Shown in pieces: positions 21,953 through 22,213 of a stretch of DNA of 64,000 bases. The notes under the pieces were generated by a model, which worked only from the letters and a program-made list of their open reading frames with translations, did not search any database and had not been told where the DNA came from. The stretch comes from an uncultured Lachnospiraceae bacterium (lineage in GTDB: Bacteria > Bacillota > Clostridia > Lachnospirales > Lachnospiraceae): positions 2,364 to 66,363 of the forward strand of contig CALWRQ010000001.1 in the NCBI GenBank assembly GCA_944383965.1. The letters are read 5' to 3'. Position 1 is the first letter of the stretch. Each line of letters starts with the position of its first letter. A program made the translations under genes and the position numbers.

Positions 21953-22213
21953 CATGCGTTTTATTTTCGATACAGAGTCTATATAGCAAATACCACTTTT
22001 ACTACTCTTATTGACCGTTTTACAAGTTGATGTACGTATCCACGCACCGGTTGTAAAGTAACCAACTCATAAAATTGAGCTTTTAACTCAATCAATAATG
22101 GCAACCTCCCGTTGCCGCTCGGCAGTTGACCCGGCTGTCCGTATGGCCTTAACCCGTCTCCGGGTGGTCCAGAATATTTGCATGGATACTCTGTCGAAAA
22201 CTCATATCGCATG
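21953..22213 (-). ncRNA. Structured cis-regulatory leader of the polyamine operon (possibly containing the ldcC RNA motif)
   Basis: Long-range helix 22213-22188 with 21978-21953; CCCG-GAGA-CGGG GNRA hairpin; GGCAAC/GTTGCC hairpin; lies upstream of SAM and arginine decarboxylase genes. Confidence 0.65.
21979..22095 (-). CDS. Putative 38-aa leader peptide (M)IELKAQFYELVTLQPVRGYVHQLVKRSIRVVKVVFAI
   Basis: GGGAGG 9 nt before a TTG; same frame as the 77-aa ORF from 22212; contains the antiterminator strand. Confidence 0.4.
   Translation of the reverse strand: MIELKAQFYELVTLQPVRGYVHQLVKRSIRVVKVVFAI

Follow-up and report, generated by a model that had tools for sequence, protein, structure and literature searches.

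The window analysed here is a stretch of 64,000 nucleotides from an uncultured Lachnospiraceae bacterium, and all positions given below refer to it. On its minus strand it carries a six-gene polyamine operon that runs from 21717 down to 15408. The first gene is speD, encoding S-adenosylmethionine decarboxylase (20959..21717, minus strand; TIGR03331, 386.9 bits), and it is followed by genes for an Orn/Lys/Arg-type decarboxylase, speE and agmatinase (speB); carboxy(nor)spermidine synthase-like and carboxy(nor)spermidine decarboxylase-like genes are also encoded. The operon (15408-21717) joins two spermidine routes, namely speD/speE and the carboxy(nor)spermidine synthase-like/decarboxylase-like pair, and additionally holds an arginine-type decarboxylase and agmatinase.

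Upstream of speD, a promoter-like site was recognized from the sequence on the minus strand at 22251..22223, consisting of TTGACA (22251-22246), a 17-nt spacer and TATATA (22228-22223), and transcription would be predicted to start near 22216-22213. The same layout (TTGACA-17-TATATA) was found by sequence comparison in the relatives L010 and L006-L008; a consensus promoter scan did not list the 22251-22223 site, whose final -10 base is A. From this site on, about 500 nt of the minus strand contain no credible gene and form the leader of the operon, in which speD starts 402 nt past the Rfam match and 256 nt past the 3' end (21973) of the conserved aptamer described below. On the plus strand, a near-consensus promoter-like site (TTGTCA-17-TATAAT, 22299-22327) points the opposite way, into a DUF885 gene (22352-24235), so that two divergent promoters lie in the 130-nt gap.

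The ldcC arm within a larger conserved fold

A cmscan search of positions 20500-23500 against Rfam, with E up to 10, found RF02440 on the minus strand at 22170-22119, where model positions 1-54 of 54 were matched with 67.1 bits (gathering score, 37.2; E = 3.2e-11). The same search gave no T-box match and none to any further Rfam family, and it placed no family on the 3' domain of the leader described below. A whole-genome search recovered the same match, which is the single copy in this genome. Thus, the leader is a member of the ldcC family (RF02440), which is labelled in Rfam as SpF59 sRNA / ldcC RNA and assigned the type 'Gene; sRNA'. An earlier, sequence-only reading of this DNA had proposed this motif or a relative of it and would have given it up if both an Rfam match and covariation were lacking; the RF02440 match and several covarying helices were found. 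The 5'-UTR position ahead of polyamine genes expected of the ldcC motif is also seen here, with speD as the first gene.

The ldcC arm (22119..22170, minus strand) comprises helix P2a (GACC 22169-22166 with GGTC 22131-22128), which was invariant among the 82 sequences aligned in this study; helix P2b (22165-22161 with 22156-22152, closed by a GAGA loop), in which 5/5 pairs covary; a mini-helix inside the ldcC 'bulge' (GGC 22148-22146 with GCC 22135-22133), for which one G-C to C-G swap was observed in L012-L014; and the UGCCGA tail (22124-22119). In the alignment to the RF02440 model, the ldcC-type hairpin with its large conserved bulge AAGGCCAUACGGACAGCCGGGUC and the UGCCGA tail could be recognized. 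The GNRA hairpin noticed in the earlier reading (ACCCG-GAGA-CGGGT, 22165-22152) proved to be P2b of the Rfam model. An alternative pairing of its ACCCGG with a downstream CCGGGT had also been suggested, and these segments are indeed complementary in the window; among 86 representatives, all 6 bp are available in only 4, and 4 bp in 55, counts that speak neither for nor against a register shift.

We collected RF02440 matches from 14 relatives and at least 120 loci of named species with an exact core (including, among the matches listed, Paenibacillus, Priestia, Neobacillus, Oscillospiraceae, Lachnospiraceae and Acidaminococcus), as well as ten further RF02440 matches from a sample of 151 Bacilli. 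The closest named leaders among the matches listed were those of Flavonifractor, Gemmiger and Anaerofilum. Conservation extended well beyond the catalogued motif: about 150 nt on its 3' side were conserved as nucleotides in about 100 Bacillota species among the matches listed, with UUAUUGAUUGAG, UUUUAUAAGUUGG, ACUUGUGAAACGGUCAAUAAGAGUAGUAAAAGU and UUGCUAUAUAGACUCUG as conserved blocks after the Rfam match. All anchors of this 3' domain were present in 106 of the 132 ldcC-core loci, and the 3' end block in 108 (again among the matches listed); loci missing some anchors were mostly cut by a contig end or contained a divergent or inserted segment. All weaker or additional RF02440 matches kept the 3' blocks, including L015, whose ldcC arm is degenerate. 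When the 3'-domain pattern itself was searched for in 61 relatives, the matches coincided with RF02440 matches, apart from one in G052. The latter was rejected as a chance match, having three mismatches, a position within a long open reading frame and no flanking RNA features.

The structure was examined with a 62-pair model and 82 sequences that were less than 90% identical. In this model, 90.0% of the cells were paired, compared with 33-47% when the partner column was slid, and compensatory changes were found in 25 pairs. Doubly changed cells numbered 230, compared with 77 +/- 9 in shuffles, none of 500 of which reached as high; it should be noted that these sequences are related by descent, so that p-values here and below overstate independence. 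Covariation backed P1b, P2b, P3, P5, P7, some pairs of P6 and the GGC/GCC mini-helix, whereas P4, P2a and most of P6 were invariant and thus beyond the reach of such a test. The variable hairpins P2b, P3, P5 and P8 had nearly all-distinct sequences that folded far better than shuffles. For the window itself, the 261-nt stretch folded at -83.8 kcal/mol (shuffles, -62.3 +/- 4.9; z = -4.4; 0/200 as stable) and the 498-nt leader gave z = -6.7; the minimum free energy (MFE) structure contained P0, P1a, P1b, P2b, P3, P4, P5, P6 and P8.

The helices that follow the ldcC arm on the minus strand can be summarized as follows. P3 (22100..22116, GGCAAC-GGGAG-GTTGCC) is an inverted repeat with compensatory changes in 5/6 pairs, and its segment folded at -9.4 kcal/mol, compared with -3.0 kcal/mol for shuffles, an advantage seen in 85/86 representatives. 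P4, an invariant helix of TTATTGA (22098-22092) with TCAATAA (22014-22008), closes the 3' domain (22008..22098), and this P4 domain was found in every RF02440 match examined. It holds P5 (22091-22075; 5/6 pairs covary), P6 (22074-22064 with 22028-22018; 3/11 pairs covary), P7 (22063-22049; 4/5 pairs covary) and P8 (22048-22029), a variable hairpin that folded better than shuffles in 78/82 sequences. The 3' part of the aptamer (21973..22007) consists of the joining strand GAGUAGUAAAAGU (22007-21995), the 3' strand of P1b and the block UUGCUAUAUAGACUCUG (21989-21973), which includes the 3' strand of P1a; the columns 22007-21973 were invariant or nearly so in the 82-sequence alignment. The P5 loop UAAAAG is complementary to the P7 loop CUUUA, and a check for a kissing interaction between them revealed no covariation, CUUUA being retained in sequences with quite different P5 loops.

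The long-range helix of the sequence-only reading, which pairs the 5' end of the leader with a segment directly behind the stop codon of an open reading frame, was recovered with all three of its segments in both the MFE and the centroid folds of the 498-nt leader and the 261-nt core. Its outer part, P0, pairs CATGCG (22213-22208) with CGCATG (21958-21953) and TTTTCGA (22200-22194) with TCGAAAA (21970-21964), the complete 5' strand (CATGCG ... TTTTCGA) occupying 22194..22213 and its partner (TA-TCGAAAA-TAAAA-CGCATG) 21953..21972 of the minus strand. P1a follows with CAGAGT (22188..22193) and ACTCTG (21978-21973), and P1b with GCAAATATT (22173..22181) and GGTATTTGC (21994-21986), two pairs of which showed compensatory changes (AU/UA/GC) in the 82 sequences. 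For P1 as a whole, native strands gave -27.6 kcal/mol and swapped strands -21.3 kcal/mol, the native ones being better in 77/86 representatives. The outer extension, that is, 30 nt outside the conserved core that correspond to the TTTTCGA and CATGCG segments noticed earlier, gave -9.9 and -7.7 kcal/mol, respectively (native better in 60/86; Wilcoxon p about 1e-6), and its native pairing also surpassed that with shuffled partners; most species have such an outer helix, made from differing sequences. The P1a duplex was present in about 71/86 representatives (-7.2 kcal/mol, compared with -3.8 kcal/mol after shuffling of the 5' strand; p about 1e-12) and was weak or absent in 15/86. An invariant internal AGAGU (22009-22005; present in 80/86) could pair with the same ACUCU as P1a, and both partners, P1a and this internal pseudoknot, appear possible. 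The outermost CATGCG/CGCATG pairing was common only to the nearest relative, L010. It competes with the local hairpin CGCAT-GAAAT-ATGCG (21958-21944, minus strand), which had been described before and does exist; among the compared loci, however, this hairpin recurs only in L010, as CGCA/TGCG, and the comparison gave no sign of a function for 21944..21958.

On the basis of these comparisons, the long-range helix is the closing helix of the entire fold: P0-P1a-P1b closes a four-way junction with three branches, namely the ldcC arm (P2), the variable hairpin P3, and the P4 domain, which branches into P5 and P6 (with P7 and P8). Because the stretch previously read as an upstream open reading frame with a Shine-Dalgarno (SD) hairpin is made of the conserved, covarying helices P3-P8, the probable functional unit takes in all of 22213-21953 (minus strand), which amounts to about 240-260 nt of RNA with many helices.

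Several variations of the fold were observed. In L015 (G048:C23, about 26230-26273), a natural variant, P2b has been lost from the ldcC arm along with the AAGGCCAU block, A stands in place of G81 as well as of G93, and the RF02440 score is 34.8 bits, under the Rfam cut-off; the entire 3' domain and speD are intact. In L025, L026, L037, L050, L066, L067, L073 and others (Oscillospiraceae loci, mostly of the potA type), the UGCCGA tail is separated from P3 by an additional GC-rich hairpin, and a P7-like hairpin is duplicated in L090, L100 and L123. In addition, 11 nt of the P1 5' strand, GUAUCCAUGCA (22189-22179), are fully complementary, with one G-U, to the 5' arm and loop of P8, UGCGUGGAUAC (22046-22036). 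This pairing is present with wobble changes in the same-genus L004 and not in other genera, and it could stabilise the antiterminated conformation discussed below in this lineage.

Terminator and alternative pairing

The sequence-only reading had expected an attenuator to follow the ldcC motif, and an intrinsic terminator does lie inside the leader at 21868-21830 of the minus strand, where a stem of 13-14 bp (21868-21837) is capped by a UAUU loop and followed by seven U residues (21836-21830; -17.7 kcal/mol). A terminator was identified in 84/86 representatives, at a median distance of 90 nt after the aptamer. Its 5' arm in the window (21871-21856) can form 13 bp (-14.5 kcal/mol) with 22035-22021, the strand that makes up the 3' arm of P8 and the 3' strand of P6 (GUACAU-CA-ACUUGUA). 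This P8/P6 strand was the best partner of the terminator 5' arm in 60/84 representatives, another region being better in 24/84, and the target takes up about 25 nt of the about 330 nt that were searched. The native antiterminator duplexes were more stable than those with swapped strands (-13.1 and -10.6 kcal/mol, respectively; p = 4e-8), and the same held for the variable P8 arm alone against the terminator arm (p = 2e-4), whereas the control arms P3 and P2b gave no significant difference between native and swapped pairings with the terminator arm. Two features expected of a riboswitch could be identified: a conserved aptamer backed by covariation, and an expression platform that shares sequence with the aptamer through its alternative pairing. 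In the window, the antiterminated fold lies about 9 kcal/mol above the fold with aptamer and terminator, and the antiterminator would span about 150 nt.

The co-variation between P8/P6 and the terminator arm suggests an OFF switch. Since the antiterminator strand is buried in core helices of the aptamer, a stabilised aptamer should lead to termination, and it is from this arrangement that we infer the direction of switching. The intact fold, for which spermidine or a close polyamine is the most likely directly bound stabiliser, would hold the P8/P6 3' strands, the terminator would form, and speD and the five further genes would not be transcribed. If the fold were not stabilised, the P8/P6 3' strands would pair with the terminator 5' arm and RNA polymerase would read through. 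Overall, we consider it somewhat probable (roughly 0.6) that 22213-21953 is the full-length ldcC leader and acts in cis as a terminator-based OFF switch, most likely stabilised by a polyamine.

Two kinds of repeats were noticed around the terminators. A perfect 12-bp inverted repeat, GCGTCTGTTCCG / CGGAACAGACGC (21919-21908 and 21817-21806, minus strand), flanks the terminator of the window and would enclose its hairpin in read-through transcripts; it is not conserved in the nearest relative, L010. Several relatives contain a GC-rich palindromic repeat (...GCTCCGCG..GCGCACTCCGCG..GGCTGCTGACGCAGCC...) between terminator and gene, for example L004 (about 440-860), L008 and L012, downstream of the terminators, and this repeat looks like a REP- or MITE-like insertion.

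Regulated genes, candidate signal and rival explanations

The first gene downstream of the element was classified in 98 loci: speD in 33, an Orn/Lys/Arg decarboxylase in 27, a carboxy(nor)spermidine synthase-like gene in 19 and potA in 19. No first gene fell outside these four types, all lay directly downstream on the same strand, and among the classified representatives the terminator was present in all four classes. Since the same wiring is seen for the SAM-dependent route, for the one that does not use SAM and for the importer, an end product would be the natural OFF signal. Spermidine or a close polyamine appears to be the most economical trigger to which this regulon points, whereas SAM, dcSAM, MTA or a pathway substrate would fit poorly. 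A more far-reaching proposal is that Firmicutes have a widespread riboswitch class whose true aptamer is this RNA of about 240 nt, that its binding of spermidine or a close polyamine would turn off both routes as well as the PotABCD importer, and that the 54-nt motif is peripheral and partly dispensable; we hold this tentatively, at a little under even odds.

The earlier reading had assigned the choice between helices to an upstream open reading frame and its attenuator, and ribosome-coupled attenuation could in principle use either of two frames that are open in the window: one of 77 codons (21979..22212, minus strand) and an Arg-rich one of 31 codons (22183-22088). GGGAGG stands 9 nt ahead of an in-frame TTG, and the stop codon of the longer frame (TAG, 21981-21979) is directly followed by ACTCTG, the 3' strand of the long-range helix, just as that reading had pointed out. 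However, this TAG sits within the invariant RNA block GCUAUAUAGACUCUG, and when the frame was anchored on the invariant UUAUUGA in 86 representatives, a stop was met at codon 10 in 60/86 and the frame was open in 4/86 only, with inter-anchor lengths differing by one or two bases rather than by multiples of three. No conserved leader frame with a start codon, the mark of a ribosome-mediated attenuator, was detected among these 86 representatives. The shorter frame fared similarly, its ATG (22183) being AAG or GAG in 61/82 sequences and ATG in only 18/82. As for the proposed SD hairpin, the hairpin GGCAAC-GGGAG-GTTGCC is real and corresponds to the covarying P3, but an SD role finds no support, since its loop is not conserved (GGGAG in this lineage only; UUUC, UUAG and so on elsewhere). 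With conservation at the nucleotide level and covarying paired columns, the 77-codon frame is open by chance in this lineage and no gene, the platform is an RNA-only terminator/antiterminator pair, and a ribosome-coupled mechanism is hardly credible.

A switch with the same fold and terminator may instead be read by a factor acting in trans, such as an RNA-binding protein, a ribosome or a tRNA that reports polyamine status. The long invariant single-stranded blocks AAGGCCAUACGGACAGCCGGGUC and GAGUAGUAAAAGU would suit a protein or RNA partner, and the years since the motif's publication in 2017 have brought no report of a ligand. Yet the protein-dependent antitermination sites known in Firmicutes (for example, those of RAT, TRAP and PyrR) are short, whereas riboswitches and T-boxes typically have the build seen here, a junction of about 240 nt in which ten helices are combined with an internal antiterminator; T-boxes, like all other Rfam families, went unmatched in 20500-23500. 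Moreover, no candidate regulator recurs next to the element, the first genes always being enzymes or potA. We therefore regard a trans factor as unlikely. It is quite improbable that the RNA is a general sensor of polycation- or Mg2+-driven compaction rather than a specific spermidine aptamer. Such a sensor would agree with a large multi-helix RNA rich in conserved junction nucleotides, with the competition of polyamines and Mg2+ for RNA, and with a regulon that spans putrescine, spermidine and cadaverine-type enzymes, but this regulon comprises polyamine genes only and no Mg2+ transporters. The Rfam name and type (SpF59; 'Gene; sRNA') raise the further idea of a mainly trans-acting small RNA, whose terminated leader would act on other mRNAs; transcription from the promoter to the terminator, about 385 nt, would yield a stable structured RNA, and metatranscriptome contigs of two studies carry the conserved core of relatives. 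As the element is always directly upstream, on the same strand, of one of four polyamine gene types, and as a strand inside the fold and the terminator co-vary in the way that cis control predicts, we consider this very improbable as the main function, even though an sRNA role would be compatible with control in cis.

Comparison with known polyamine gene leaders

Polyamines are essential and become toxic in excess and, to our knowledge, the only riboswitch for polyamines that has been validated in bacteria is a rare variant of SAM-I. In gamma-proteobacteria, polyamine genes are attenuated by a leader peptide, the SpeFL arrest peptide, which relies on a conserved peptide sequence. The leader described here resembles SpeFL-type attenuators in standing before polyamine biosynthesis genes with an open reading frame and a terminator; by contrast, its open reading frame is not conserved, and what is conserved is the paired RNA.

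The spermidine riboswitch derived from SAM-I, of which 13 representatives are known, is a terminating OFF switch before ldcC, speE and speB in Firmicutes, with spermidine and its close analogues as triggers (Salvail et al. 2023, Cell Rep, PMC10853860). The job proposed for the ldcC leader, a transcription-terminating OFF switch before polyamine genes, is the same. However, the two folds are unrelated, neither the SAM-I four-way-junction fold nor its sequence being recognizable here (no SAM-family match by cmscan in 20500-23500, E up to 10), and the ligand has been demonstrated for the SAM-I variant, whereas it is predicted for the ldcC leader. In contrast to the rare SAM-I variant with its 13 representatives, the ldcC leader gave more than 120 species matches among those listed.

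The ldcC motif was described as an RNA of 54 nt, a bulged hairpin that may also contain an invariant pseudoknot, which occurs in 5' UTRs of SAM and Arg/Orn decarboxylase genes of Firmicutes and for which no ligand was given (Weinberg et al. 2017, Nucleic Acids Res 45:10811, PMC5737381); the gene associations described there agree with those found here. Our searches of the literature on ldcC, on polyamine, putrescine and agmatine riboswitches and on orphan candidates retrieved neither a larger ldcC fold nor a ligand. The window agrees with the published motif in matching its model end to end, in its place in a 5' UTR before decarboxylase genes and in belonging to the Firmicutes. Unlike the published motif, however, the 54-nt element is here one arm of an RNA of about 240-260 nt, which has at least eight further helices besides the one that closes it, as well as a defined platform of terminator and antiterminator; the 3' domain, for which Rfam has no model, is retained in L015 despite the degenerate ldcC arm. 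The 54-nt Rfam model thus under-describes the family, and members with a decayed arm score below the cut-off. If the larger fold is the true unit, the use of a 54-nt construct that leaves out most of it could be one reason why no ligand has been reported; the present analysis would place construct boundaries at about 22215-21950, with OFF control expected and spermidine heading the list of ligands.

The ldcC motif has been an orphan since 2017, yet Bacilli, Clostridia and Negativicutes, many gut anaerobes among them, may use it as their main element for polyamine control. The metatranscriptome contigs mentioned above came from chicken gut and from another metagenome; they contained the conserved core of relatives, corresponding to 21965-22212, without flanks and with many differences from the window, at appreciable depth and in runs of small share.
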